Of a stretch of DNA of 64,000 nucleotides, positions 21,459 to 64,000 are shown piece by piece. A program made the translations under genes and the position numbers. Origin of the DNA: a virus. The notes beneath the pieces are model-generated. The model saw nothing but the letters and a program-made list of their open reading frames with translations. It was not told the DNA's origin and searched no databases. The stretch covers positions 70,561 through 134,560 of IMG/VR virus record IMGVR_UViG_3300030616_000016; one strand, 5' to 3'. Positions within the stretch are counted from its first letter, which is position 1, and each line of letters starts with the position of its first letter.

Positions 21459-21872
21459 TTATCTGGTGTCAATTTTGCTACTCTCTCCTGTTTCTATGCA
21501 ATAATGGACTGTTGTTTCATGACCTGTCATTACTATCATATGATTTCCGCACATATTTATTACATTAGTACTTTCTAAATCATATACATTAAATACCTTT
21601 TGCAGTTCTTTGTCTTTGAATATGAAGACAAGATCCATATCGAACGCACTAAACTGTGTGTTAGTATCTGATACATTTATTATGTAGTCGAAATCTATCT
21701 TTTTATTGATGGATTCTTCAAGATATTCTTGATAATTTTCATCAATATCCTGAGGGTCTTCTACTCCATATACTTCTGATATTTCTTCTTCTGTCAAGAC
21801 TTCCTTGATTGTTTTGCCTTCGATTTCATCAATGTTTCTATACATTGAATTTCCTTTCTGAGAGAGTGACAT
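21459..21872 (-). CDS. Hypothetical acidic protein; its ATG lies inside the IS right end
   Basis: The start codon is the ATG within the IS terminal sequence GGGGTAATGTCAC. Confidence 0.5.
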   Translation of the reverse strand: MSLSQKGNSMYRNIDEIEGKTIKEVLTEEEISEVYGVEDPQDIDENYQEYLEESINKKIDFDYIINVSDTNTQFSAFDMDLVFIFKDKELQKVFNVYDLESTNVINMCGNHMIVMTGHETTVHYCIETGESSKIDTR

Positions 21873-23167
21873 TACCCCACGCCTAAAGGCGGGGGCTTCC
21901 TAATTCATCGAAAATTGCGTTCCATACTGGCTACGTCTTACATCTTCTCCAAAGGCTTTAGGTTCCCCTTGCCCAGGGGTACAAAATGCAAAATTCAAAA
22001 TATTACTAGATGCAAGGGCATCTCTATCGTGTTTGGCACCACAAGTGCAAGTCCAATATCTGTCACTTAGCTTAAGATTATTATTTATAGCGCCGCACTG
22101 GTTACACATCTTGCTGGATGGTTCAAATCTTCCTATAGTCAAAACATGCTTTCCATACCAACCTGCCTTATACTCAAGAAAGGTACGAAAAGTATACCAT
22201 CCAACATCAGAGATAGCCTTGGCCAAACAATGATTCTTCACCATTCCAGAAACGTTTAAATCCTCAAGACACACTGCTTGGTTCTCGTCAATGAGCCTTT
22301 TGGACAATTTATGCAAAAAATCTTTACGTTGATTAGAAATCTTCTCATGTATCAACGCTACCTTCCTACGAGCCTTGTTTCTATTTGAAGAACCTTTCTT
22401 CTTCTTTGATAATTGTTTTTGCTTTCTTGCCAATCTTCTTTCAAGTTTCTTTAGGTATCTTGGATTATCTATTTTCTCGCCTGTTGATAGTGTTGCAAAA
22501 TGTTTTAATCCAACGTCAACACCTACACTATTATCTCGTTCAGGATTACATTTGATAGGTAATTCTTCTCCATTGTCAACCAAAATAGAAGCAAAGTATT
22601 TCCCAGAAGGAGCCATGAATATAGTTACAGTTTTAATATTGCCTTCAAATTGTCTATGGAATTTGCATTTGATGCCATCACGGAATTTCATTACATATAG
22701 CCTATTATTATCAAAATCCACATTACTTCCTTGTGGAAATTGACAAGATTGCTTTTTGAATTTCTTCTTAAATTGAGGATATCTTGCCTGTTTCTTAAAA
22801 AACCGCCGGAAAGCATTGTCAAGGTTTCTAAAGGCCATTTGCAAAGATTGACTATTAACTTCCTTCAGCCAACCATGCTCAGATTTCATATGTTTCAATT
22901 GCTTTATCAAATCAAAACAGGAAGGAGATTTCCCCGTTTTTTGATAAGACTCTGTTTTCTTTTGGAGTCCCAAATTGTATATGAACCGTACACAACCAAA
23001 ATGCTTCACAAGAAGCTCCTGTTGTTTTTTGTTGGGGTATATTTTGTATTTATATGCTCGTATCATTATATTTATAGTATAGCACAGGTTTCTGTAAATG
23101 TCAAGAGAAAAACGCATTCTTATATCCCCATGGCTAAAGCCAGGGGTCTTACGAATGCACCTTGATA
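21866..23167 (-). mobile_element. IS200/IS605-family insertion sequence, TnpB-only (IS1341-like), with subterminal hairpin ends
   Basis: Left end (near 23167) TATCAAGGTGCATTCGTAAGACCCCTGGCTTTAGCCATGGGG and right end (near 21866) GCCCCCGCCTTTAGGCGTGGGGTAATGTCAC. Both carry GC-rich hairpins with TTTA loops. The same ends recur at 33634-33883 and 62731-62781. Confidence 0.8.
21900..23117 (-). CDS. tnpB: TnpB (OrfB) RNA-guided nuclease of IS200/IS605 family
   Basis: 405 aa. RuvC-like NQAVCLEDLNVSGMVKN (RuvC-II E), zinc finger CNQCG...CTCG, RuvC-III DRDALASSNILNFA. Confidence 0.85.
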   Translation of the reverse strand: MRFSLDIYRNLCYTINIMIRAYKYKIYPNKKQQELLVKHFGCVRFIYNLGLQKKTESYQKTGKSPSCFDLIKQLKHMKSEHGWLKEVNSQSLQMAFRNLDNAFRRFFKKQARYPQFKKKFKKQSCQFPQGSNVDFDNNRLYVMKFRDGIKCKFHRQFEGNIKTVTIFMAPSGKYFASILVDNGEELPIKCNPERDNSVGVDVGLKHFATLSTGEKIDNPRYLKKLERRLARKQKQLSKKKKGSSNRNKARRKVALIHEKISNQRKDFLHKLSKRLIDENQAVCLEDLNVSGMVKNHCLAKAISDVGWYTFRTFLEYKAGWYGKHVLTIGRFEPSSKMCNQCGAINNNLKLSDRYWTCTCGAKHDRDALASSNILNFAFCTPGQGEPKAFGEDVRRSQYGTQFSMN

Positions 23168-23335
23168 AAAGAGCAGGAGGAAGGTATCCTCTTCCCCCTG
23201 CCAGGTTTCATTATCAAAAGCTCCAGCTGCTTTCAATTATCAGTTGAACGCTGGAATTCAATGAAATGTTGCATTTATGTTGTCTACGGCGCTATAGCCA
23301 ATTTTTAGATCTAAGTACCTGCGACCTGCCATTAG

Positions 23336-23398
23336 TCCAAGGACACATAAGGAATAAAATGGAGTGTCCTGAGGGACTTGAACCCTCAACTCAGGCAT
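23336..23398 (-). other. tRNA-like 3' fragment (T-arm + 7-nt acceptor + discriminator + CCA) embedded in a hairpin
   Basis: - strand reads GAGGG-TTCAAGT-CCCTC AGGACAC T CCA. The complementary GTGTCCT lies 17 nt further on. No 5' half could be found by eye. Confidence 0.25.
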
Positions 23399-23520
23399 AG
23401 TTAATATTGGCGTTCGAGAAGACAACGCAACAAATGCTGAGCTTTCAGGGAATAGTCTGAATTTAGCGTGCTTTCATATTATCACCAGCTTTCGCCGCGT
23501 ATGCCAGTTCCGCCATCTTC

Positions 23521-23565
23521 CCATATAGTGGGAAGAGCAGGGTTCGAACCTGCACGGTGAAGGAA
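23521..23565 (-). other. Second tRNA-like T-arm motif next to an 8-bp hairpin
   Basis: GCAGG-TTCGAAC-CCTGC on the - strand. Neighbouring hairpin TCTTCCCA-tatag-TGGGAAGA. No full cloverleaf could be built by eye. Confidence 0.2.
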
Positions 23566-23608
23566 AGTACTTATTTCAGCTTAACCTTAAGCTTCAGCTT
23601 GCCCTGTA

Positions 23609-24346
23609 TTATCCGAAAATGAAGTTACAGATGTCCTTGCCGATTTCTTTGCGTTCAACAGACGTGTTGTTTGCTTCTTCTCGTGCAAACTTGACTGCTC
23701 TCATAAGAACAGCAATTTTGTCAAGCATTTCTTTCTTACGAGTTGCAGAAATACATGTACTGAGCTTTGTAGTAGTCCAGTAACCGATAATCTCATCGCT
23801 GACTACAAGCTGAGTCTGTGCAGGATGCTTTTCAGTAGCAGCATAAAGAACGATAGGTTTCTCAACCTTACGTGTTTTATGTGTCTGACGCGCGCCTGAT
23901 TTGAACATTCCGGAATCTTCATCACGAGCCCATGTTTCTGCTGGATCCAGTTCAGGAAGTTTCTCGACATATGTTTTAATATCGTTCAGCTGTTTTTCGA
24001 GGTACAGCAAGAATGTGGGAGGGGCGTCTTTTACAATTACTGTGTCGCCAACCTTAATATCTGCTTTTGCAATGGTATTGCCAAAGTCTTTAGTTGCAGT
24101 AACATCAAACAGATCTGCGAGAGATTCCGCTACTTCGTTAATTACATTGTTCAGATTTTCTTGTACCTTTACTGATTCTTCTGGAAAGTTCTCACCTTCT
24201 TCGTCTTTAGGCTCATATACTTTATGAAGGCCATTGAATATTTGTGGTGCATCTGACAAACGATGAGCCTGAGTAATGATAGAATTATGGCGGGATTTTT
24301 CGCCCTTCTCAACTGCAATAATCTGATTAAGTTTAACTTCAGACAT
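23609..24346 (-). CDS. Hypothetical protein, probably highly expressed (strong SD, elevated GC)
   Basis: Preceded by AAGGAGGTAACAA-ATG. Composition is richer in G+C than its neighbours. Confidence 0.55.
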   Translation of the reverse strand: MSEVKLNQIIAVEKGEKSRHNSIITQAHRLSDAPQIFNGLHKVYEPKDEEGENFPEESVKVQENLNNVINEVAESLADLFDVTATKDFGNTIAKADIKVGDTVIVKDAPPTFLLYLEKQLNDIKTYVEKLPELDPAETWARDEDSGMFKSGARQTHKTRKVEKPIVLYAATEKHPAQTQLVVSDEIIGYWTTTKLSTCISATRKKEMLDKIAVLMRAVKFAREEANNTSVERKEIGKDICNFIFG

Positions 24347-24371
24347 TTGTTACCTCCTTCTGTAAGATTTA

Positions 24372-25121
24372 TTATTCAATTATTTCTTTTATTTCTTTTA
24401 TGATACTTTCTTTTGATTTAATTTTTGGTTTTGACTCATGCAATATATTATTAGTACTTTCTTGTATCATATAATCTTCAACTTGGATAGATTTTAATGT
24501 GTCTTTATACAAGTCATCGATTGTTATATCTGAAATATCATTTACACTATCAGAATATGTTGATATCATGTTATTAAATTTTGATTTAAGCTCTACTTGT
24601 TTAGACTTTGCCCTCAGAGAAATGAGCTTAGAATCATATTCATTACATTTCTTTTCATATTCTTTTATCTTATTTTCCCAGCTAATCAGAATTTTTCTTA
24701 AAGAGCTTAGTGTTTCTTTTTTAAGCTTAACTTCTTCTTTCATTTTCTTTAGAACAAGTGACCTAGAATGAATCGTTTCTAGTTCTTTTAGGTTTCGCTC
24801 TACATTTGATTCTTTTAGATTTTTCTTTATGTTACTTGTAACTTCTTGTATATTTTGTTCAAGTCCATAAACTTCTTCTTCCAGAAACTTTATATCTATT
24901 TTTAACTCTATTGCCTGTGATTTACTTACTTTCAAATTACTTTTCAGGTCATCTATAACGACCTCGATTCTATCAATTTTTACATCTGTAGGAATTGATT
25001 TTTCTATCTTCTTAACAGTAGTTTTCTGTGCTGTTTTGACATAGCTTTTAACTCTGCTGTATCCAATAAATACGATTGCTAATATTGTTATTATGGCTAC
25101 GACAACAAGTTTTTTAATCAT
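24372..25121 (-). CDS. Membrane-anchored coiled-coil protein
   Basis: N-terminal TM MIKKLVVVAIITILAIVFIGY followed by a K/E-rich heptad-like sequence. Confidence 0.55.
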   Translation of the reverse strand: MIKKLVVVAIITILAIVFIGYSRVKSYVKTAQKTTVKKIEKSIPTDVKIDRIEVVIDDLKSNLKVSKSQAIELKIDIKFLEEEVYGLEQNIQEVTSNIKKNLKESNVERNLKELETIHSRSLVLKKMKEEVKLKKETLSSLRKILISWENKIKEYEKKCNEYDSKLISLRAKSKQVELKSKFNNMISTYSDSVNDISDITIDDLYKDTLKSIQVEDYMIQESTNNILHESKPKIKSKESIIKEIKEIIE

Positions 25122-26298
25122 TCAATTTCTCCTCTGATTTTGTTGATTTTTGTAGATTATATTGCATTATGTTTTTATCAAATTCTCTAATCTGTGTCTT
25201 CATTTCTTCTGATTCTTTTATAAGTTTGCTATATTTATGTTTGATAATAGCTTTAGAATGTAATAAGCCAATATGTTCAATAAGTTTATTAAATTTGTAA
25301 GCGAATCTAGTAGCTTTTGCTGGAATTTCTGTCAATGCTTCTACTTCTTGATCAGTTAGAGTTGAAGTTTTTAATTTATCAACTCTTGATTTTAATTCAT
25401 TAAGTTTACTTTGTGGTAATTTCAACTTATTTAATTGGTATTTGAAATCATCTTTGAGGAGATCTGCGAACTTTCCTTCTTTTGCTTCAAGTATATTATC
25501 AAAGAATCCTGTACCTTTCTTAGGTTCTTCTTCTATATATTTATCAAATCTAGTTACGGGTTCTTCCGGAGCACTCGCAAGTTCTTTCAGATACTCTGAA
25601 GGCTTAGGTAATGTTTTAGGTTCTTCTGTTGTTATTTTCTGTTGTAATGATCTTATCCACTCAGCACGTCCATCAAACTTGATGCTGTTTAAAGAAATAT
25701 GGTTATAATAATATTCAATAAGACAATCTGTTACATTTTTTAATATTTGTTCTTTTGGCATTTGATATATACAAGTCTTAAGACATTTTTTACTAATACT
25801 TTCCAAAACATTTTCTTTAATGTTTGGATATTCTGCTTTAATGTATTCTTTTATTAATGGAAGTCTTCTTTCAATAAGTTCATTATTTCTAAGATTATTC
25901 ATCATTAATAATATTACGATTGTTAAGCAAGTTCCAAAAATATATGGATTTATTTTGGTCTCAACTTTTGCAGCATCTCCATATAAGCTATGCCATATTA
26001 CAATAAGTTTTCCTGCTTGGATTATTGAATATACAATTAATGGGATAAATAATATGTATCCTAATGCCTCATATGCACTCATATATGGAAGTGTATTTAT
26101 ATTCATTATTGGCATTGGCTCCTTGGTTTGTGGAACATGGACATTGCTAAGTATTGATATAAGAATAAGTACAAACGAGATTATTAGTGCACAAAATAAT
26201 GACTTACTGGTTTGTATGATTTCAGATAAAAGTATTATCAATGCAAGTAATGGTAATCCAATACAAATGATTATTATAATGTATATAAGCACTACCAT
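25114..26298 (-). CDS. Polytopic membrane protein with C-terminal coiled-coil region
   Basis: Several hydrophobic segments in the N-terminal 130 aa, then a K/E-rich region. Confidence 0.55.
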   Translation of the reverse strand: MVVLIYIIIIICIGLPLLALIILLSEIIQTSKSLFCALIISFVLILISILSNVHVPQTKEPMPIMNINTLPYMSAYEALGYILFIPLIVYSIIQAGKLIVIWHSLYGDAAKVETKINPYIFGTCLTIVILLMMNNLRNNELIERRLPLIKEYIKAEYPNIKENVLESISKKCLKTCIYQMPKEQILKNVTDCLIEYYYNHISLNSIKFDGRAEWIRSLQQKITTEEPKTLPKPSEYLKELASAPEEPVTRFDKYIEEEPKKGTGFFDNILEAKEGKFADLLKDDFKYQLNKLKLPQSKLNELKSRVDKLKTSTLTDQEVEALTEIPAKATRFAYKFNKLIEHIGLLHSKAIIKHKYSKLIKESEEMKTQIREFDKNIMQYNLQKSTKSEEKLND

Positions 26299-26300
26299 AA

Positions 26301-27305
26301 TTATCTCATTAAATATAGATTGCGTAGTTCATCTCTATCATAAAACACATTACGGATTTCTTGTCTAATATTATAGTCTTGAAATATTCTATCATAAAAA
26401 CTAGTAGTATCTCCACCAAGAAATTCTATTGCATCATTTATTGGTTGAGTTGTATTATGGTCTGGAGTAATTCCAATTCCTTCTTTCTCGACTCCATATA
26501 TATCATATATAATTCCTGCTGTGTAATTGAATCCATCGCCTCTATAAAACTTATATGCTTGTACGGCTCTAAAAGCACCAAATGTTTTAGAGCCAAATAT
26601 TGTAGCTTCTGAATAGTATTTCATTGCTGAAACAAATATTTCTGCGAATTGAAATGTACAAGCACTCGTAAGTATACACATATTATTTTTATGAAGCCAT
26701 GTATTTTCTGTTTGCACAGACATATCTGCAAAATCACTAAACGCAAATGCTGTATTATTAATTGCTGCAACTAATTCATTAGAATAAGTTTTGTGAGTAA
26801 ATCCAGCAAGCAGTTTTATGTATTCGCCTAATCCGCCATTATTACAATATCTAAGATCGAGAATTAAAGAATTGCATTCGAATTCATACATGTAATGGTT
26901 GACATTAAGCATAACAGTTTCTGCCATTCCAGCAGACATTTTATCTACAGATATATATAATATATCTGGTTCAATTTTATATATTTTTAATGTTCCTGAT
27001 GCTTCATTATCTGATATGGCTGCTTCCATTTCTTCGCTGTTTATATACCTTGTATATAAATCTGTTTCAGAACGGAGTCTATTTATATATGATTCTAAAG
27101 TATCTGAAGTTAAAGGTGGTTGAACGTTTCCATAAATATAGCCTTGTGATAATACCGAATATGCTTCTTGTAGATATTCTTCATCTACGTTTGTAATTTG
27201 ATTTTCTGTATTTGGATTGCTACTATTTCCTCCTCCTCCACAGCCATTACAAAATATAATTATGATACATAATATGAACAAATTAATTTTGATATTTTTT
27301 ATCAA
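26301..27305 (-). CDS. Lipoprotein, S41 (C-terminal processing peptidase)-like domain
   Basis: Signal and lipobox LFILCIIIIFCNGCGGGG. CILTSACTFQFAEIFVSAMKYYSEATIFGSKTFGAFRAVQ aligns with the S41 LVNxxSASASEIFAGALQD...GxxTFGKG region but with a non-canonical Ser motif. Confidence 0.45.
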   Translation of the reverse strand: MIKNIKINLFILCIIIIFCNGCGGGGNSSNPNTENQITNVDEEYLQEAYSVLSQGYIYGNVQPPLTSDTLESYINRLRSETDLYTRYINSEEMEAAISDNEASGTLKIYKIEPDILYISVDKMSAGMAETVMLNVNHYMYEFECNSLILDLRYCNNGGLGEYIKLLAGFTHKTYSNELVAAINNTAFAFSDFADMSVQTENTWLHKNNMCILTSACTFQFAEIFVSAMKYYSEATIFGSKTFGAFRAVQAYKFYRGDGFNYTAGIIYDIYGVEKEGIGITPDHNTTQPINDAIEFLGGDTTSFYDRIFQDYNIRQEIRNVFYDRDELRNLYLMR

Positions 27306-27428
27306 GACTACCTCTTTCTGTTTAATAATGGTTGTAATGAATAGGAAAGTCTCTGGTAAGGCAAAAGGATGAAGAGCACGAGGGCTCTTTGGGGGAAGTC
27401 GAAAATTCTCACCAGAGACGGGATATAT

Positions 27429-28220
27429 TTAGAAATCAGTTGATTTTGCGGTTCTCATACCGCGAGCCATCATTTCTTTCACAAAGTCTTCTCCAAGACT
27501 TTCGAAGGTCGCTACATTTGAAGTTGTATCTTCAATTAATACAAACTTCTTAATATTCTCATCGCCGAAGTTATCAGCAATGTCTCTTACTGTATTTGCA
27601 ACACAGTGTGACAGAGCTTCTCCAGTTATGAGAATATCGTCTGCTTCCAGTAGGCTATCAAGAAGATTGCCATTAAGTCTTGTAGTAGGGTCAGACGGGT
27701 CTTCTACATCGGCTTTTACTGCTGAGTAGTGTTCTGTAAAAGGATTAGACCCTTTAGTAACATAGTCAATCATAGCAAACTGATTTTCCCACTCAGTTAT
27801 TGCTTCGAACACATTAGCATCGATTGAATGTCCTTGCGAACCAATAAGACAATGTGGCCGCCAGATGCAGAGAACATATCTGCCATTGTCTTCAAGTGTT
27901 TTTGTATAATCTGAAGCTTTCTGTTGAAGAGCTGGGTTATAGGAATGCCAGACACCATTTTTTACATCATCATGGGATATTACTGTAAATGGGTTTGGAT
28001 GTTTACCATCTTTATCAACCCAGAATATAGGATGTGCAATATGAATGGTTCTGTGAGAATCCATTGTAATATGGATATCATCTAATCCGTCTTTCATTCT
28101 GTTGACCATTTCTGCAAGACGTTTCATATCCTCATCTGCTCTAGGAACAACTAGGGCTCCTTTTGGATTACAGAAGTCATATTGAGGATCAATAGCAAGA
28201 AGATGAGTTTTCTTGTTCAT
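27429..28220 (-). CDS. Isochorismatase-family hydrolase, nicotinamidase (PncA)-like
   Basis: LLAIDPQYDFCNPKGALVV (LLVIDMQNDF-type), IHITMDSH, RPHCLIGSQG (catalytic Cys region). Confidence 0.7.
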   Translation of the reverse strand: MNKKTHLLAIDPQYDFCNPKGALVVPRADEDMKRLAEMVNRMKDGLDDIHITMDSHRTIHIAHPIFWVDKDGKHPNPFTVISHDDVKNGVWHSYNPALQQKASDYTKTLEDNGRYVLCIWRPHCLIGSQGHSIDANVFEAITEWENQFAMIDYVTKGSNPFTEHYSAVKADVEDPSDPTTRLNGNLLDSLLEADDILITGEALSHCVANTVRDIADNFGDENIKKFVLIEDTTSNVATFESLGEDFVKEMMARGMRTAKSTDF

Positions 28221-28239
28221 AATTGCTGACCTTTCTTAG

Positions 28240-29895
28240 TTATTTTTTAATACTGATAGAGAACATTTCTTTATCCTCTGTAAAGTATACACTGGTACCA
28301 TCAGTGTATAGTGGCATTGATGAGTCTATCGGCGGATTAGTAATAATGCGTTTTTGATTATCTTTAGAGATCTCAATCTTTTGATCGCTAAATACATCAA
28401 TGCAAACTCCATTATTAAGAACAATGAAATTGATATTATCAACATCGCGCTCTTCTTTGTCTAGCAGAATACCTTTATTTTCTTTGCTGCATAGTTTGAA
28501 TCGGAATCTATAATATTTACCAGATTCTTCTGCTATGCATACTAGAATTCCTCTGCTATGTTTTGCATTGATTATTCTAAGTCCATGGAGTTCCTCAATA
28601 GGACCTAGAAAACTACCAGAATCTTCTAATGGCGCATATGCCCAACATTTGTCTAGGAAGTTGCTAATTACTACTCCACTAAACATTTGATTCATAGTAC
28701 CAAGATTTTGGGATGGATTCGAGCATGCCGCGCTCTTATTCCCCATATTTTTTGCATATACCTCATATACTGAGGCGCCGTTTCTGCAAAATATACTACC
28801 ATTGTATATCATGGCTTTGTCTGCGGCAAATTTACCTGGTATATCCGTTTCTATTTCTACACAGCCATTATCAATTATGCCTAACACAGGGTCAGGAGAT
28901 AGATTGCATAGAAATGCCTTTTTATTGGATATATCCTTAAATATGGATTTACCACAGTATATTGCCTTATCCGTAAATGTATAGAAAATACCATTTAGGA
29001 ATTGTATTGATTTAATCGGCTCATTGTACTTATACATTGATTTAATGTCAAAATTTGCTGTGCTTCTTATAGTCTTTTGAACCATAGCTATATTAATTGT
29101 AGCGTCAGGTTTAGGTGGAGCGCTGCGTTTATTCTCAATGAATATTGACTTAAACCACTCCATATGAGCTTTAGGAATAACTGAGAAGTCTTGACATACG
29201 GATGGAATGGTAACCTTACTATCAAATACGGATATACCATCATCCATTCGCTTAGTAAATTCTCTTGGTTTATAGTCTGGGTGTTTACCCTTATAAGGAT
29301 GGATACCAACATAAAGCTGAAATGCTATTACTGCAAACGAGAACCAATCGCTTAGTTCTGTGAACTTTTTGGCTAAGCGGTCTCTTATTGAATCCATAAT
29401 AGCATTAGCTGGAAATGACTTTGTCTGATAACTGTCAACGTCAATAAAGTAAGGTACTTTATGACCTTTGTCTATCAGAAAGTTCATTTCATTCATATCT
29501 ACTATCAGGCATTGTTTAGAATGAATGTGCTCGACCGTGTCTTGTATATTGCGCACAATTTCTAATACTTGATTAGGAGATATATTATTATCTTTTCTGT
29601 ACTGCTTAGTAAAGAGCTTGCATAGAGCACTTGTCTCTTTAATATACTTCATTGTATATCCGATGACATTGCTTGTCTTTTTATCGCAAACAATATCTTC
29701 CGGTTTGATAACATTGCCGGCTGTTATATAGCCAAGCTCTTCAATCTTTCTTAATGGTATCATATGCTTGATATCATTATAAATCTTGAAGGCAATATTG
29801 TCTTTTTTATATACAGAACCTTGACCACCAGATGCAATAAAATCATTGTCTTTCAGGTCAAATGAAGCCTTTGTTCTATTTACAATGACTCTCAT
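28240..29895 (-). CDS. Ser/Thr protein kinase-like domain protein with large C-terminal domain
   Basis: Gly-rich loop SGGQGSVYKK with IAFKIY (VAIK Lys), catalytic-loop-like LIVDMNEMNFLI, DFG-like IDVDS. C-terminal ~280 aa unassigned. Confidence 0.65.
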   Translation of the reverse strand: MRVIVNRTKASFDLKDNDFIASGGQGSVYKKDNIAFKIYNDIKHMIPLRKIEELGYITAGNVIKPEDIVCDKKTSNVIGYTMKYIKETSALCKLFTKQYRKDNNISPNQVLEIVRNIQDTVEHIHSKQCLIVDMNEMNFLIDKGHKVPYFIDVDSYQTKSFPANAIMDSIRDRLAKKFTELSDWFSFAVIAFQLYVGIHPYKGKHPDYKPREFTKRMDDGISVFDSKVTIPSVCQDFSVIPKAHMEWFKSIFIENKRSAPPKPDATINIAMVQKTIRSTANFDIKSMYKYNEPIKSIQFLNGIFYTFTDKAIYCGKSIFKDISNKKAFLCNLSPDPVLGIIDNGCVEIETDIPGKFAADKAMIYNGSIFCRNGASVYEVYAKNMGNKSAACSNPSQNLGTMNQMFSGVVISNFLDKCWAYAPLEDSGSFLGPIEELHGLRIINAKHSRGILVCIAEESGKYYRFRFKLCSKENKGILLDKEERDVDNINFIVLNNGVCIDVFSDQKIEISKDNQKRIITNPPIDSSMPLYTDGTSVYFTEDKEMFSISIKK

Positions 29896-30731
29896 GGCTT
29901 ATCCTTAAGCAGTGTAGCACATGCTATATCATCAAAGTGCTTATTGTTTATTTTGGAATCCATGATGCGTATTTTCTTCATTCTTCTTTTTACAAACTCT
30001 CCTTTGAAGGTTTTATATACAGTCATTCGTATAGCGTTATCAAGCACACTTGTATTTTCAAAAGAGCTTATACCATCAGTGAACAGGCTTATGCTCATTC
30101 CTTCTGCCATTGGCGCACTAGACATTATGTATGGCTCGAACATGGGGATTGTAGAGCTCTTAAAGTCTTCGTCTGGGTTATATGACAATACTGTTTTTTC
30201 TGGATTGCCCAATATATCCATAGTATTCATATAGTCTTTAATCTTTTCATCTTCCATGCGATATGCAAGATAGTATGGCATGTTAGATGTATATGATATT
30301 TCTTCAATACGAATCCATGGATTTGGGTCATTCGCTCTATCAAAACCATCATTAAAGACAACTACTCCATCTCCCCATACTGCTATGCCAAATCCCTCAT
30401 TATTGGCTATTACTACCATAAGCGTGGCATAGAATGTCTGGATGTCAAGACAAAGAGCTATTGCTACTTTTGATAGCGCTCCCAACACTTTATTTTCAAA
30501 TGAACAAAGAGCAGTTGATAATGTCTTGTGTCCAAACATAACTATTGAGCTTCTTAATGCTTGTTCTGCAGCAATTCCAAGTATTTTTGCACCAAGGTCT
30601 GTGTTTTGTGCAGAAGAACAGCCGTCACAGACGATACCATAGGAATAACCATAGATATCGCCTGTGATAGCATAATCTTCACACATATCATGACTGGCAC
30701 CAATTTCTACAAAACTATCTTTCTGTATCAT
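29892..30731 (-). CDS. PP2C-family (PPM) Ser/Thr phosphatase
   Basis: GIVCDGCSSAQNTDLGAK (PP2C metal-binding region F-G-V-x-DGHGG-like) and FTDGIS (DG motif). Confidence 0.6.
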   Translation of the reverse strand: MIQKDSFVEIGASHDMCEDYAITGDIYGYSYGIVCDGCSSAQNTDLGAKILGIAAEQALRSSIVMFGHKTLSTALCSFENKVLGALSKVAIALCLDIQTFYATLMVVIANNEGFGIAVWGDGVVVFNDGFDRANDPNPWIRIEEISYTSNMPYYLAYRMEDEKIKDYMNTMDILGNPEKTVLSYNPDEDFKSSTIPMFEPYIMSSAPMAEGMSISLFTDGISSFENTSVLDNAIRMTVYKTFKGEFVKRRMKKIRIMDSKINNKHFDDIACATLLKDKP

Positions 30732-30747
30732 TGGTACTCCCAGTCAT

Positions 30748-31497
30748 TTAGAAGTTAAGAATTGAAGATGCCGAGCCGGATCCAAGAGACTGTGATTGTG
30801 AGGATATGCTTTGACTCACAAATTCAGCCAGCTTTGCAAGCTTGGATGGAGTAGCTTCTCCGACAGATACGTATTTATCAAGGTTTGCATTATCCTTGAA
30901 TGTAGTCAAGAAATTCTTGACTGCAGGATCTTTATCAATCCCGATAAGAACCGTAATAATTGATTCGAGGCTTTCTTCTCTTGTGATATCATCTACTAAC
31001 GTAGCAACTTGTACTGGCGCATTATTTGATTGATTATCAGCGCCATCTGTAATGATAAATACAATTGCATTTGTTAGGAGATCTACTTTATCATACATCT
31101 GCTTGCTATACTGATGTGTTGCTTCGATGCCTTCATATGTTGCATCAAATAATGCAGTTGTACCGCCTGTACGGATGATATTAGAGTATTCATCATCACT
31201 AATATCACTTAGGAGGCGGAAACCATGCATTTCGTTCAGATTAGCATTGAATGTAGTGAAGCGAACCATTAAGTTTTCTGCACGTGGAGACTTTTTGCAT
31301 GATTCGATTACAGTTTTCAGCATATCCTCAATATCATCTTTGTATGGAGACACTGAAGAAGATACGTCGATAATAATTGAAACGAGTGTATATTCAGAAG
31401 CACCTAGTTCATCAAGCTTTACAGCACTGAATCTGAAGTTTGATGCAGTCTGCATACTGGTTATGTTTGCAAGATCTTTATCCATTAATCTTGGCAT
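30748..31497 (-). CDS. von Willebrand factor A (vWA) domain protein, TerY-like
   Basis: MIDAS motif VSIIIDVSSSVSP (D-x-S-x-S), downstream T and D residues consistent with vWA. Confidence 0.7.
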   Translation of the reverse strand: MPRLMDKDLANITSMQTASNFRFSAVKLDELGASEYTLVSIIIDVSSSVSPYKDDIEDMLKTVIESCKKSPRAENLMVRFTTFNANLNEMHGFRLLSDISDDEYSNIIRTGGTTALFDATYEGIEATHQYSKQMYDKVDLLTNAIVFIITDGADNQSNNAPVQVATLVDDITREESLESIITVLIGIDKDPAVKNFLTTFKDNANLDKYVSVGEATPSKLAKLAEFVSQSISSQSQSLGSGSASSILNF

Positions 31498-31499
31498 GG

Positions 31500-32486
31500 T
31501 TATTTCCTTTCTTTGTTAAGCCTGTTTCCTTCTCCTAAATGCATAAGGGGAAGCGGTTTAGGGCTATCACCATTTAGGAAGTATACCTTGGTAGCCGGGT
31601 CTTTTGTAATTGTACCTAGTGCTTTAAGTGCTTCAAGCTGGATATATGCAGGATTATTTGCAATAGCATCGTTAACTTTCTGAATTTCATATGCTTTTGC
31701 GTCTGCAAGGATCTTCTGTTTTTCTGCTGAAAGCATTGCGGCGTCTTTATCTGCCTGAGCAGTTTTAACTTTCTTCTGCTGTTCAGTCTCAAACCTGCGC
31801 AACTCTGCTTTCTCACGTTCAGCTTCCTGCTCGCGTTTCTTCTTACTCTCAACACCTTGCTGGATTGTGTTGGGAAGTTGAATATTTCTAATGAGAACAG
31901 CTTCAACATCAAGGCCCTTTGGTGCAACGTATTCTTTAATTGAAGTAAGAAGATTTGCCTGCATCTTTTGCTGAATTTCTTCCCTAAAGAATGACTCTGC
32001 AGTTTTCACACTTTTACCTTGTTCTCGCAATAAGCTTCGGAACTTGGGTAACATGTGTACTTCCATAAGGTCTTTAGGATTACCGGTTTCTTGCAGAATG
32101 TCTGGAGCCATAGACTTGATAATTCGATACTGACAGCTTACATCGAATGTCGTAACAAGCTGGTCCATACTTGGGATGGGAACCTGGCTCATTGTAATAC
32201 TTTTCTGACGACAATCGAATTCTTCCCAATCATACAAAGGATTGGTAAGGTGAATGCCTGCTTCATAGGGCTGATCAACGACTTTACCAAAGAATGTAGC
32301 TACTCCAATATGTCCTGGAGGTATTGAGATAACACATGAAGCGATGAGAGTAATAGCGCCGACGGCTCCTACCAGTAGACCGCCAAGAATATAAGGACGC
32401 CTTTTTTCTTCTGATTTAGCCATAAGACCATATACAAACACCAACAAACCGATTAATGCAATTATAATACCAAGAGCAAGTATCAT
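31500..32486 (-). CDS. SPFH/band-7 (stomatin/prohibitin/HflKC) membrane protein
   Basis: N-terminal TM, then IPPGHIGVATFFGKV and an extended E/K/A-rich coiled region typical of SPFH proteins. Confidence 0.75.
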   Translation of the reverse strand: MILALGIIIALIGLLVFVYGLMAKSEEKRRPYILGGLLVGAVGAITLIASCVISIPPGHIGVATFFGKVVDQPYEAGIHLTNPLYDWEEFDCRQKSITMSQVPIPSMDQLVTTFDVSCQYRIIKSMAPDILQETGNPKDLMEVHMLPKFRSLLREQGKSVKTAESFFREEIQQKMQANLLTSIKEYVAPKGLDVEAVLIRNIQLPNTIQQGVESKKKREQEAEREKAELRRFETEQQKKVKTAQADKDAAMLSAEKQKILADAKAYEIQKVNDAIANNPAYIQLEALKALGTITKDPATKVYFLNGDSPKPLPLMHLGEGNRLNKERK

Positions 32487-32508
32487 ATTACTACCTTTCT
32501 AAATCAAA

Positions 32509-32646
32509 TTACTTTTTAGTATATATACCAATGAAACCATTCCACTGGTAATTTTTGTACTTAATACCACAAATGAATCCAAACAATAGTGTAGATAGAA
32601 CAACAAAGCCTATCATTATTAAAGTAGCTTTTGCTAATTGTTTCAT
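32509..32646 (-). CDS. Small single-TM protein (45 aa), not in supplied ORF track
   Basis: MKQLAKATLIMIGFVVLSTLLFGFICGIKYKNYQWNGFIGIYTKK, directly downstream of the SPFH gene. Confidence 0.25.
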   Translation of the reverse strand: MKQLAKATLIMIGFVVLSTLLFGFICGIKYKNYQWNGFIGIYTKK

Positions 32647-32921
32647 TCTACACCTCTATAATAAGTAAGTTTCCGTATAGCAGCCAACTCCTGGGGAAAT
32701 CGACATTAGGAAAGCATGTCGACTAACTATATGTCTCCATATAGAACAGGTGAAACGTTGGTTTCTCGATTAACTTTCACCTTTCAGCTGTCAACTTTCA
32801 AATCCTGAACTTTGAATTTTAAAGTTTGAGCTTTGAAGGGCTAAGTTTAGTTCGTATTATGAGTACGATACGTAATTCCTATTTTCTTTTCTCCCTCTTC
32901 GCTATGGAAAACTTATTGTAT

Positions 32922-33440: not shown

Positions 33441-33633
33441 GCTGAACCTTTCCTCTCTATTAATTTGTTTTAACCAAAAATTCACCAAACAACACAACTT
33501 GCTTATTAAATGATAATTAGATAGTTACTTAGATAATCAAATTATTTGATAGATCGGTAACATATCTCAATTATGCAATTTTTTGGTAATATATGTATAT
33601 CACTGTGCCTTAAAATGAGTACCTATTATCGTT

Positions 33634-33883
33634 TATCAAGGTGCATTCGTAAGACCCCTGGCTTTAGCCATGGGGATATAAGAATGCGTTTTTCTCTTGA
33701 CATTTACAGAAATCTGTGCTATACTTTTGCTAATGATCGAAAACCAAGATCATTGGCAAAGAATTTAGATACCGCAGGGCATGCGGAAATTTACGCCTTT
33801 GGAGAAGATGTAAGACTTGTCTGCTTGAAAGCAGTCTTCAGTGAATTAGGAAGCCCCCGCCTTTAGGCGTGGGGTAATGTCAC
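33634..33883 (+). mobile_element. Miniature deletion derivative (MITE-like) of the IS200/IS605 element at 21866-23167
   Basis: Keeps the left end, the first 14 codons of tnpB (MRFSLDIYRNLCYT), then jumps to the last ~50 codons and the right-end hairpin. Near-identical at nucleotide level to the full copy. Confidence 0.75.
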
Positions 33884-56099: not shown

Positions 56100-56312
56100 G
56101 CTTCTTGTTCCCATGCTATACGCCGGTCTTTTACGTCAGGGCCATCGCATTACACGTCTCAGATTTGTTCTGAGTGCGGCAAAAATGTCAAGAAATCGTT
56201 GTCCGCAAGAACCCACATATGCTCCTGCGGATTCGTTGCGAATCGAGATCACAACGCAGCGTTGAATATTTTGCGACTCGGGATGGAGTCGCTTGCAGCT
56301 TCGACTGCATAG
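56100..56312 (+). pseudogene. TnpB C-terminal fragment (a third, different family), GC-rich
   Basis: HYTSQICSECGKNVKKSLSARTHICSCGFVANRDHNAALNILRLG (TSQ-x-CS-x-CG ... C-x-CG ... D-x-NAA-x-NIL). Followed by hairpin GCTCGGCAATTCATTGCCGAGAGC. Confidence 0.6.
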
Positions 56313-61008: not shown

Positions 61009-61019
61009 TATTTAAACTC

Positions 61020-62240
61020 CTATGTCAATTGTTCTGGAATAAGCTCGCTTTGATTTCTCCAATTTAGAGCTTGTTCCACTGTTTTGATATTTTGTGGTAC
61101 GCATTCCATGTGCCATGTACCAATGCTTGGATTTAGCATTTTAAGATAAGGCCATTTGCCGGTCTCACCCTTCAGATCTACTACAACCAATTCATAATCT
61201 CCTTGCGTGTCCAGTGATTCAGCGCCCGTAGATTTGACAATTCGTTCTATACCTACCTTTCTTATAAACTCCCTACGGACTTCTGCATTATCAAGTTCTG
61301 CGAATTTAGCAGGGTCAATGTCATGCTCATTCGTTTCTGCTAACCACTGCGGAACTCGTACATTATTCAAATGCCACAGTCCCCAACCGTCCGCAAATTT
61401 TACAGACATTCCTCCATCTTTATGCAGATGACTGGCTTTCCAGTTTATTTCGATTGGATTCCGACTTACAATAGCAACATTTTTATACAGTGCGCTTGAG
61501 GATATTTTTCTGTTGTAATTTAGAAATATATCATATTTTTCTTTCTCATATTTAACGCCTATATATTTCCCAAACTCGTAAACTCCGCACCAATCATTCC
61601 ACCATATGTTTATATACTGCTCGGTTTTTAATTTGTTGGCACTAAGCCTGTCACGAAGGCTGTCACGAAGGCTGTCACGAAGGCTGGCATCAAGACTGTT
61701 ACGAAGACCGGCACTAAGACTATCATAAAAACTATTATGAAGACTGTCATAAAGACTGTTACGAATATTGTCATGAAGGCTGTTACGAAGACTTTTATGA
61801 AGACTGGCATAAAGACTGTCATAAAGACTGGCATAAAGTTTGTCATAAAGATTGTCATGGAGACTGTTACGAAGACTTTTACGAAGACTTTTACGAAGAC
61901 TGGCATCAAGACTGTAATAAAGACTGTCATAAAGACTGGTATAAAGTTTGTCATAAAGATTGTCATGGAGACTGTTACGAAGACTTTTATGAAGATTGTC
62001 ATGAAGATTGTTATGAAGATTGTCACTAAGCAAATGTTCTGTTAGTGCTGTTGTTAATGGGCTATCACAGATTATAATTTTAATGGCATTATCTGCACCA
62101 GTCATTTTTACAATAGGCAATACTGCGTGTTTAATTTCTTCATCACTGTATTGCGCCGATATGAGGTTTAAACAGCGATTTATATGTCTTGGTATCATTT
62201 TTTCTTGTTCTTTTGTTAAACTCATAATTTCCTCTTTCAT
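61020..62240 (-). CDS. Repeat protein: ~35 tandem xSLx tetrapeptides (12-bp DNA period) plus conserved ~220-aa C-terminal domain
   Basis: SLRNSLHDNLYDKLYTSLYDSLYYSLDASLRKSLRKSL... The DNA at 61620-62030 is tandem 12-mers (GACTGTCACGAAGGCTGTCACGAAGG...). A paralogous C-terminus restarts at 63926. Confidence 0.6.
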   Translation of the reverse strand: MKEEIMSLTKEQEKMIPRHINRCLNLISAQYSDEEIKHAVLPIVKMTGADNAIKIIICDSPLTTALTEHLLSDNLHNNLHDNLHKSLRNSLHDNLYDKLYTSLYDSLYYSLDASLRKSLRKSLRNSLHDNLYDKLYASLYDSLYASLHKSLRNSLHDNIRNSLYDSLHNSFYDSLSAGLRNSLDASLRDSLRDSLRDRLSANKLKTEQYINIWWNDWCGVYEFGKYIGVKYEKEKYDIFLNYNRKISSSALYKNVAIVSRNPIEINWKASHLHKDGGMSVKFADGWGLWHLNNVRVPQWLAETNEHDIDPAKFAELDNAEVRREFIRKVGIERIVKSTGAESLDTQGDYELVVVDLKGETGKWPYLKMLNPSIGTWHMECVPQNIKTVEQALNWRNQSELIPEQLT

Positions 62241-62730: not shown

Positions 62731-62781
62731 TATCAAGGTGCATTCGTAAGACCCCTGGCTTTAGGCGTGGGGTAATGTCAC
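62731..62781 (+). mobile_element. 51-bp minimal derivative of the IS200/IS605 element (left-end 5' arm fused to right-end 3' arm)
   Basis: TATCAAGGTGCATTCGTAAGACCCCTGGCTTTAGGCGTGGGGTAATGTCAC. The junction lies in the CTTTAG shared by both hairpin loops. It supplies the last 7 codons and stop of ORF 62761-63024. Confidence 0.7.
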
Positions 62782-63024
62782 TTCTAAATCTAGTTCATAT
62801 TTAATTGTTTTTACTAGATCATTAATTAATTCTGGACGTGTAGCCATAGTTTCTACATTCCAATTTCTGTTGATGTATTGTGGTTTACATCTTAAATTAA
62901 AATTTCCTCCAATATCAGAGATAGATTCAATTATAGCTTTGATTCTTTCAGGAGTTAAACCAGCATTATGATAGTCTTCAAAACTCAAATGGATTATTGT
63001 TGTTGTATAATAATTAAGTTTCAT
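62761..63024 (-). CDS. Hypothetical protein, C-terminus provided by the mini-IS
   Basis: Ends EVTLPHA-stop, encoded by GTGACATTACCCCACGCCTAA of the element. Confidence 0.4.
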   Translation of the reverse strand: MKLNYYTTTIIHLSFEDYHNAGLTPERIKAIIESISDIGGNFNLRCKPQYINRNWNVETMATRPELINDLVKTIKYELDLEVTLPHA

Positions 63025-63918: not shown

Positions 63919-63925
63919 ACTCCTA

Positions 63926-64000
63926 TGTCAATTGTTCTGGAATAAGCTCGCTCCGATTTCTCCAATTTAGAGCTTGCCGCACTGTTTTGATATTTTGTGG
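63926..64000 (-). CDS. C-terminal end of a paralog of the xSLx-repeat protein (continues beyond the window)
   Basis: 63930-64000 is near-identical to 61017-61087 (CAATTGTTCTGGAATAAGCTCGCT...TTTGATATTTTGTGG). Confidence 0.55.

Follow-up and report, generated by a model that had tools for sequence, protein, structure and literature searches.

The 64,000-nt window analysed here (one strand, positions 70,561 to 134,560 of IMG/VR virus record IMGVR_UViG_3300030616_000016) carries on its minus strand what is very probably a non-autonomous tnpB-only (IS1341-like) IS200/IS605 element of a phage, whose right-end ATG is part of the conserved terminus. On one side of the element stands a terminator-like hairpin, on the other the ribosome-binding site of a phage ORFan. 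The window comes from a large phage genome of about 232 kb, and a 231,593-bp ENA metagenome contig (ERZ27252234, k141_1275754) contains the region, the window matching about 97,042–161,041 of it in reverse. The open reading frames (ORFs) of the window are nearly all on the minus strand. The tnpB-only elements and palindrome-associated transposable elements (PATEs) that carry omega-RNAs have been documented (PMC10055086), and TnpB has been reported as frequent in phages (PMC12607003). The element is of a known kind, unusual only in having a one-hairpin derivative and in the apparent link of its lineage to phages. The features of the full copy, in the direction of its transcription, are as follows.

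23172–23202, minus: terminator-like hairpin of the upstream transcription unit, a 12-bp stem followed by CTTTTAT
23165–23169, minus: target or transposon-adjacent motif (TAM) TTTAT, outside the element, closing the T-tract of the upstream terminator-like hairpin
21866–23164, minus: full non-autonomous IS200/IS605 element (tnpB-only), 1,299 bp, recognised by ends shared with two other copies and by TnpB domains
23126–23146, minus: left-end subterminal hairpin CCCCTGGC-TTTA-GCCATGGGG with a bulged T and an outer stem GCATTC/GAATGC around it
23076–23104, minus: sigma-70-like promoter in the left end, TTGACA-17-TATACT with TG, 11/12
21900–23066, minus: intact tnpB, 388 aa, with D184/E268/D349 and C321/C324/C340/C342
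21866–21981, minus: predicted omega-RNA scaffold, 116 nt (P1 hairpin, P2 long-range helix, variable hairpin, GAAGCC, right-end hairpin and TAATGTCAC), from a covariance model and covariation
21875–21895, minus: right-end subterminal hairpin CCCCCGCC-TTTA-GGCGTGGGG with a bulged T
21846–21865, minus: flank predicted as the omega-RNA guide, TCTCTCAGAAAGGAAATTCA, placed from TnpB biology; it holds the Shine-Dalgarno (SD) sequence of the downstream gene
21459–21845, minus: resident phage gene, 128 aa, an ORFan; its real start is most likely ATG 21845, not 21872

TnpB and the ends of the element

The protein matched the Pfam families HTH_OrfB_IS605, OrfB_IS605 and Cas12f1-like TNB, all above their cutoffs, and the NCBIfam model guided_TnpB at 352.8 bits (cutoff 100). 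Its score for the NCBIfam model IS200_TnpB was 424.6 bits, 0.4 bit short of the cutoff of 425. The ISDra2 TnpB structures (PDB 8EXA, 8BF8 and 8H1J) matched residues 3–378 with an E value of 2.8e-67; D184/E268/D349 fell on D191/E278/D361, and the four zinc cysteines were aligned. The preliminary description of this DNA had proposed an intact TnpB-only IS200/IS605 element, and Pfam, NCBIfam and the ISDra2 alignment bear it out, since the RuvC and zinc architecture was found by profile search. ISDra2 shares the protein architecture and the catalytic and zinc residues with the present element and differs in being autonomous, with tnpA. The TAM of ISDra2 is TTGAT, against TTTAT here.

The start of TnpB is placed at ATG 23066 (MIRAYKYK) because the Pfam HTH domain begins at residue 1 there and homologues start there. 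A 405-aa ORF from ATG 23117 was rejected as tnpB, being a mechanical extension. Membership in the IS607 type was ruled out by the hairpinned ends and by an NCBIfam IS607_TnpB score of 176 bits against a cutoff of 350. TnpB homologues are counted in thousands. The closest (87, 79, 74 and 73% identical) are tnpB-only and lie among small phage-like genes, and one close homologue is on an IMG/VR viral contig, adjoining Bro-N, SSB and HNH genes. The best TnpB from a cellular genome is 55% identical (Methanosarcina and others). A search of the 64-kb window for a Y1 TnpA (tblastn and a hidden Markov model of 9 sequences) found none, with a best E value of 0.5. The tnpA gene adjoins tnpB in relatives that are more distant and share the right-end type (loci L016, L023 and L064).

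The boundaries of the element were drawn from the shared 5′ flank TTTAT/CTTAT, the shared 3′ end ...TAATGTCAC and the unrelated flanks beyond. With a slash at each boundary, the left part of the minus strand reads, in order, ...CTCTTTTAT/CAAGGTGCATTCGTAAGA-CCCCTGGCTTTAGCCATGGGG-ATATAAGAATGCG...TTGACA-17-TATACT-ataaatata-ATG(tnpB), and the right part reads ...TAG(tnpB stop)-GAAG-CCCCCGCCTTTAGGCGTGGGG-TAATGTCAC/TCTCTCAGAAAGGAAATTCA-ATG. The span had earlier been given as 21866–23167. The right end at 21866 (...CCCCCGCCTTTAGGCGTGGGGTAATGTCAC) holds, and the left boundary is most likely 23164, with TTTAT at 23169–23165.

Both ends carry the hairpins with TTTA loops that had been described as typical of IS200/IS605, and the two fold alike. 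Their common geometry is 4 bp, a bulged T, 4–5 bp and the TTTA loop, and their folding energies as DNA are −6.9 kcal/mol (left) and −8.2 kcal/mol (right). They stand in direct orientation on the same strand, and there are no terminal inverted repeats and no target duplication. For the hairpin pattern CCCCNNNCTTTAGNNNTGGGG, 5 occurrences were counted in the window, where 0.04 would be expected. Three occurrences each were counted for the end sequences TTATCAAGGTGCATTCGTAAGA (0 expected) and GGGGTAATGTCAC, which comprise a 22-nt left-end core and a 13-nt right terminus. Three copies of the element had been announced, and all of them carry the described sequences; only one is a full element, the others being a 247-bp gene-less derivative and a 48-bp one-hairpin remnant. 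All three terminate in TAATGTCAC. Their 5′ flanks are TTTAT (full), TTTAT (247-bp) and CTTAT (48-bp), and their 3′ flanks (TCTCTCAG, CTGATTAG and TTCTAAAT) do not repeat the 5′ flanks. The suggestion that the shared TTATCAAGG is a conserved target or left-end core proved right on both counts: TTAT is the target (TTTAT being the ISGst2 TAM) and CAAGG is the first bases of the left end.

Among relatives, the right end is mostly GGTAGTTCAC, and GGTATGTCAC in the closest ones (L002, L003 and L007). The left-end hairpin region of the window (CGTAAGA-CCCC...GGGG-ATATAAG) is like that of the autonomous element L064, which has both tnpA and tnpB, and the left end of L002 and L003 differs from it. Judged from these likenesses, the ends are mosaic relative to the protein: the left-end hairpin region is L064-like, and TnpB and the omega-RNA are L002/L003-like.

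ISGst2 has the TAM TTTAT and the end motif TTCAC (Meers et al. 2023, PMC10055086). Elements of this type, from Geobacillus stearothermophilus, resemble the present one in being tnpB-only with subterminal hairpins on one strand, in the TAM, in a TTCAC-type end motif (GTCAC in the window, TTCAC in most relatives) and in an omega-RNA that runs across the 3′ end of tnpB and the right end. Their PATEs, likewise gene-less, retain the omega-RNA and depend on TnpB and TnpA supplied in trans. The likeness is one of motifs and organisation. The differences are the carrier (a phage of about 232 kb here, a bacterial chromosome there), the lack of a cognate tnpA in the 64-kb window and the mosaic left end.

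In IS608 of Helicobacter pylori, the model for end recognition by Y1 TnpA, the hairpins are likewise imperfect and carry an extrahelical T, the cut at the left flank falls 3′ of a 4-nt motif, and the right end stops about 9–10 nt past the hairpin. In the IS608 pairing scheme, GAAT pairs with TCAA; in the window, GAAG (the 4 nt ahead of the right-end hairpin) and TCAC (the end motif) fit it with a matching T:A to G:C change, which we take as a lead. The pairing rule for the left-end target was not used: the right end fits it, and the left end (AAGA versus TTAT) and L002/L003 do not fit cleanly.

Putative omega-RNA scaffold and the two derivatives

The predicted scaffold overlaps the final 27 codons of tnpB. 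P1 is a 5-bp hairpin. P2 is a long-range helix that pairs the 5 nt before GGAG with 5 nt ending in the first G of GAAGCC. In an alignment of 13 sequences, both showed strong covariation; together they were 93% paired with 32 double-change cells, a level that was reached by 0 of 500 shuffles, and slid controls gave 39–48%. P2 was spotted by eye and tested afterwards, and RNAalifold on a plain MAFFT alignment gave P1 only. A covariance model was built from ten relatives alone, with the window sequences excluded. It made exactly two full-length matches in the window, at 21866–21981 on the minus strand (78 bits) and at 33770–33883 on the plus strand (79 bits). In the 93 related loci searched it made 70 matches, nearly all at the 3′ end of tnpB. 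These matches showed 98% pairing and 242 double-change cells in an alignment fitted to the model. A structured RNA module conserved with compensatory changes is thus supported by the sequence comparison, two of its helices covarying across about 70 related loci.

Several results weigh on the other side. As just noted, part of the covariation was measured on a model-fitted alignment. P2 is weak in the sub-lineage of the window itself, with 3 bp and two U-U pairs. The right-end hairpin is not specific evidence for an RNA because TnpA recognition alone would make it covary. Rfam gave nothing relevant, neither for the whole window at the gathering threshold nor for 21780–22150 at E ≤ 10. The folding check proposed for the putative omega-RNA had a divided outcome: the last 165 nt of the full copy, folded as a single sequence, were no more stable than shuffles (z = −0.78), and the scaffold is supported by covariation. 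The evidence for the RNA rests on covariation because of this folding result.

The two derivatives have the following parts.

33637–33883, plus: gene-less PATE, 247 bp
33632–33636, plus: TAM TTTAT of the PATE
33655–33675, plus: left-end hairpin of the PATE
33697–33725, plus: promoter of the PATE, followed by the first 10 nt or so of tnpB and a 14-bp stem
33770–33883, plus: predicted omega-RNA scaffold of the PATE
33854–33874, plus: right-end hairpin of the PATE
62734–62781, plus: one-hairpin remnant, 48 bp, preceded by CTTAT
62752–62772, plus: hybrid hairpin of the remnant

The 97-nt left ends of the PATE and the full copy are 98% identical, and their terminal 34 nt (GAAGCC, hairpin and ...GTCAC) are identical. 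The linker and variable hairpin are L003-like in the PATE and L002-like in the full copy. Therefore, despite its near-identical termini, the PATE derives from a related element and not from the full copy; by its sequence it is an internal-deletion derivative of that element. Its P1 is kept by compensatory changes (CCCCT/AGGGG versus CCGCA/TGCGG), and its transcript folds well (z = −3.9). The only ORF across it, 33573–33866 on the plus strand, is mechanical, with its start outside the element. The PATE ends 4 nt past the stop of a convergent gene for an RNA-polymerase-beta-like protein. With promoter, 14-bp stem and scaffold, it looks like a compact guide-RNA cassette, and it would serve as a second such cassette with TnpB supplied in trans.

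The 48-bp unit begins as the left end and switches to the right end at the hairpin loop, giving CCCCTGGC-TTTA-GGCGTGGGG. It is best read as the product of a hairpin-to-hairpin deletion, with CTTTAG microhomology in both loops, and it is probably inert. REP/RAYT units resemble it: they too consist of one hairpin flanked by short conserved sequence, and they stem from IS200/IS605 ends. They differ in that the window has one hybrid hairpin, no RAYT gene or Y1 protein and no sign of spread. The 48-bp unit was therefore not classed as REP/RAYT; a deletion in situ explains it better. The full element, the guide-only PATE with its own promoter and the one-hairpin deletion product make this a well-resolved phage example within one genome.

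The 48-bp unit also gives the last 6 codons (VTLPHA) and the TAA stop to a convergent 87-aa ORF (62761–63024). In the relative L007 (4204–4207), a 637-aa gene ends in a TGA stop that is the terminal TCA of the element on the opposite strand. Going by these sequences, an element convergent to a gene can supply the stop codon of that gene with its right end.

Right-end ATG and the downstream gene

The left-end promoter is conserved in L002, L003, L008 and L064 and in the 247-bp copy. In the full copy, the ATG of tnpB lies 9 nt past the −10 element and has no SD. A distance of 6–9 nt without SD is kept in the tnpB-only relatives L002, L003 and L008, which suggests that the tnpB mRNA may be leaderless. 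In the autonomous L064, the same promoter precedes tnpA, with a leader of about 30 nt and an SD. The full copy is inserted directly past the terminator-like hairpin, with the TAM inside its T-tract, and 20 nt ahead of the ATG of the downstream gene. No terminator was found between tnpB and that gene, so transcriptional read-through from tnpB into the resident gene appears plausible.

The preliminary description took the ATG inside the terminus as the start of ORF 21459–21872. The gene has its own SD and ATG 27 nt downstream, and the public gene call of the contig, a 128-aa form, starts at that ATG (21845), so this claim is not supported. The SD ahead of ATG 21845 is CAGAAAGGAAATTCA. Among the long minus-strand ORFs of the window, an SD core stands ahead of 44 of the 72 first ATGs, against 8% of random positions, and several genes have the SD form GAAAGGAA. 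The right-end ATG has no SD and lies 2 nt past a GC-rich hairpin of 8–9 bp. No homologue of the ORFan was found besides itself.

A functional start at ATG 21872 would mean that the gene owes its start codon and a 9-residue N-terminal extension (MSLSQKGNS) to the IS end and is coupled through it to the omega-RNA region. The ATG (21872–21870) is in frame with the ORF with no stop between, and the lack of a terminator after tnpB also speaks for donation. So does L002, the only other relative with a co-oriented downstream gene, where the right-end ATG is likewise in frame and open for 68 codons. The gene of L002, however, has its own start (GAGG-6 nt-GTG), and ATG 21845 has the SD typical of this genome. 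Elsewhere the right-end ATG opens only 4 and 9 codons (247-bp and 48-bp copies) and 3 codons (L003), and in L007 it opens an ORF only antisense to the real 637-aa gene. The chance of an open in-frame ATG 27 nt upstream is about 0.13–0.20 per case because eight in-frame codons without a stop precede 39% of the SD-supported starts in the window. With the public gene call added, these points make donation very unlikely.

A systematic in-frame position was also considered. It holds in 2 of 2 co-oriented cases, yet each gene has an SD and a start of its own, and the sample is too small; L002 is the sole independent test (p about 0.1–0.16). ATGTCAC is the conserved right-end terminus in L002, L003 and L007. 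As read from these ends, the ATG most likely belongs to the transposon terminus, and its in-frame position most likely is a coincidence. As a practical warning, the extension of a longest ORF into a transposon end can mimic a donated start codon.

Mobility, persistence and genomic setting

Following established TnpB/TnpA biology, the left-end promoter would drive a tnpB transcript whose 3′ part is processed into the omega-RNA. The 16–20 nt past ...GTCAC (TCTCTCAGAAAGGAAATTCA) would be the guide. TnpB and the omega-RNA would then cut DNA where TTTAT directly abuts the guide sequence, i.e., TTTAT+TCTCTCAGAAAGGAAA. Such a target would exist where the element is absent or has been excised, in a sister genome or in that of a co-infecting phage, and recombinational repair after the cut would restore or copy the element. 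New TTTAT sites would be reached only with a Y1 TnpA in trans. The predicted excised or empty junctions of the three copies are TTTAT/TCTCTCAGAAAGG, TTTAT/CTGATTAGTTT and CTTAT/TTCTAAATC. The sequence suggests that the TnpB/omega-RNA maintenance module is probably functional. Since the window has no TnpA, mobility needs a transposase in trans, and we infer by analogy that the element is or was mobilised in this way.

Two further points count against the reading of a tnpB-only element dependent on TnpA in trans. The tnpA search covered the 64-kb window, and a phage-borne tnpA is possible in the remaining 167 kb or so of the contig. An empty site was sought through the RNA-polymerase-beta-like neighbour and none was recovered, so that the exact boundaries and recent mobility are inferred. 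L241, the only related phage contig found, has a 57-nt spacer and no element past the orthologous gene, at the position of the PATE, and is too diverged (66%) for an exact empty site.

All three copies might instead be inert relics, decaying transposon DNA with no functional TnpB–RNA complex and no mobilisation. The missing TnpA agrees with this, and so do two degraded C-terminal TnpB remnants, which show that decay occurs in this window. Exact-pattern scans of IMG/VR and the JGI metagenomes with the right end and the left end also found no match, and thus no further copies, host copies or empty sites. On the other hand, tnpB is full length with every catalytic and zinc residue, its promoter is near consensus, and the ends of the PATE and the full copy are as similar as described above. 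The three copies lie at (T/C)TTAT sites with different flanks, which points to past insertion of TnpA type in this genome. We consider the relic explanation unlikely.

Another explanation is that TnpB was exapted by the phage and is no longer selfish: it would regulate the adjacent gene through its guide RNA in the manner of TldR, or serve as a weapon against hosts or rival phages. The closest relatives (73–87% identity) are all on phage-like contigs, and the best cellular hit is only 55% identical; the SD of the next gene falls within the predicted guide, and a second guide cassette is present in the PATE. The catalytic residues are intact, unlike those of the nuclease-dead TldR, and both transposon ends and hairpins are kept. 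The occupied site has the right end (...GTCAC) and not the TAM ahead of the guide-matching DNA, so self-binding is not expected. None of the guides of the three copies has a second match in the window. Exaptation is improbable, nearly as much so as donation of the start codon.

We speculate, with low confidence, about a phage-adapted TnpB lineage that persists in phage genomes mainly because it homes, guided by RNA, from one co-infecting phage to another. TnpB, directed by its own guide and by that of the PATE, would cut the empty alleles of related phages, and the element would be copied in by recombination. The right end including the ATG, together with read-through, would be tuned against silencing of the resident gene upstream of whose ribosome-binding site it inserts. 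The element is a possible test case for RNA-guided homing between phages.

Matches to PHROG in the window include helicases and the RNA-polymerase-beta-like protein. GenBank phages gave no megablast match for the 9 kb around the element, so no close relative is present there, and distant blastn of the element gave only weak matches at the level of TnpB. Metagenomes and GTDB genomes, scanned with the protein as guide, offered no hint of the host. The RNA-polymerase-beta-like protein of L241 is 66% identical to that of the window. Between its gene and the HD-domain and QSregVF_b genes, L241 has only about 1.5 kb, against about 13.7 kb including the IS in the window. Because of this spacing, the IS is placed in a block of about 12 kb that is absent from L241 (window 21459–32921). 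At 23203–23608, between a DUF7873 gene and the IS, about 400 nt have no convincing ORF and no Rfam hit, and the terminator-like hairpin (23202–23172) stands at their end.

Other features of the window are as follows.

40755–40980 (about 7 units) and 42347–42916 (about 16 units), plus: non-coding arrays with a strict 35-nt period
43010–44020, minus: gene of 336 aa adjoining the arrays
41987–42295 and about 56140–56309, plus: C-terminal TnpB remnants, antisense to phage genes (Pfam Cas12f1-like TNB, E values 5e-20 and 7e-13)

The array unit is TGATTCATTC, about 7 variable nt, TGGTATTT and about 10 variable nt. The 336-aa protein matched the NCBIfam model "TIGR-Tas system RNA-guided endonuclease" (E = 1.8e-46, 158.8 bits, cutoff 100) and also TasH in the PDB. 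The arrays and this gene look like a phage-encoded TIGR-Tas locus, which would be a known kind of system (PMC12045711). A scan of IMG/VR with the array pattern gave one chance match only. The TnpB remnant at 41987–42295 lies between the two arrays. The remnants keep only the last 50–70 residues (...NPAYTSQTCSKCG...DADLNASRNI and YTSQICSECG...NRDHNAALNI), and the omega-RNA model had no match beside either.

Three repeats were also observed. In ORF 61020–62240 (minus), a 12-nt repeat occurs about 32 times at 61640–62030 and gives a protein segment with a four-residue period (...SLRNSLHDNLYDKLY...). An 82-nt direct repeat, 94% identical, is found 2.9 kb apart at 61016–61097 and 63919–64000, the second copy reaching the end of the window. 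The intergenic gap at 10567–10654 holds an imperfect inverted repeat of 42 nt (74%), its arms separated by 4 nt and both carrying TTGAC/TATAGT-like motifs.

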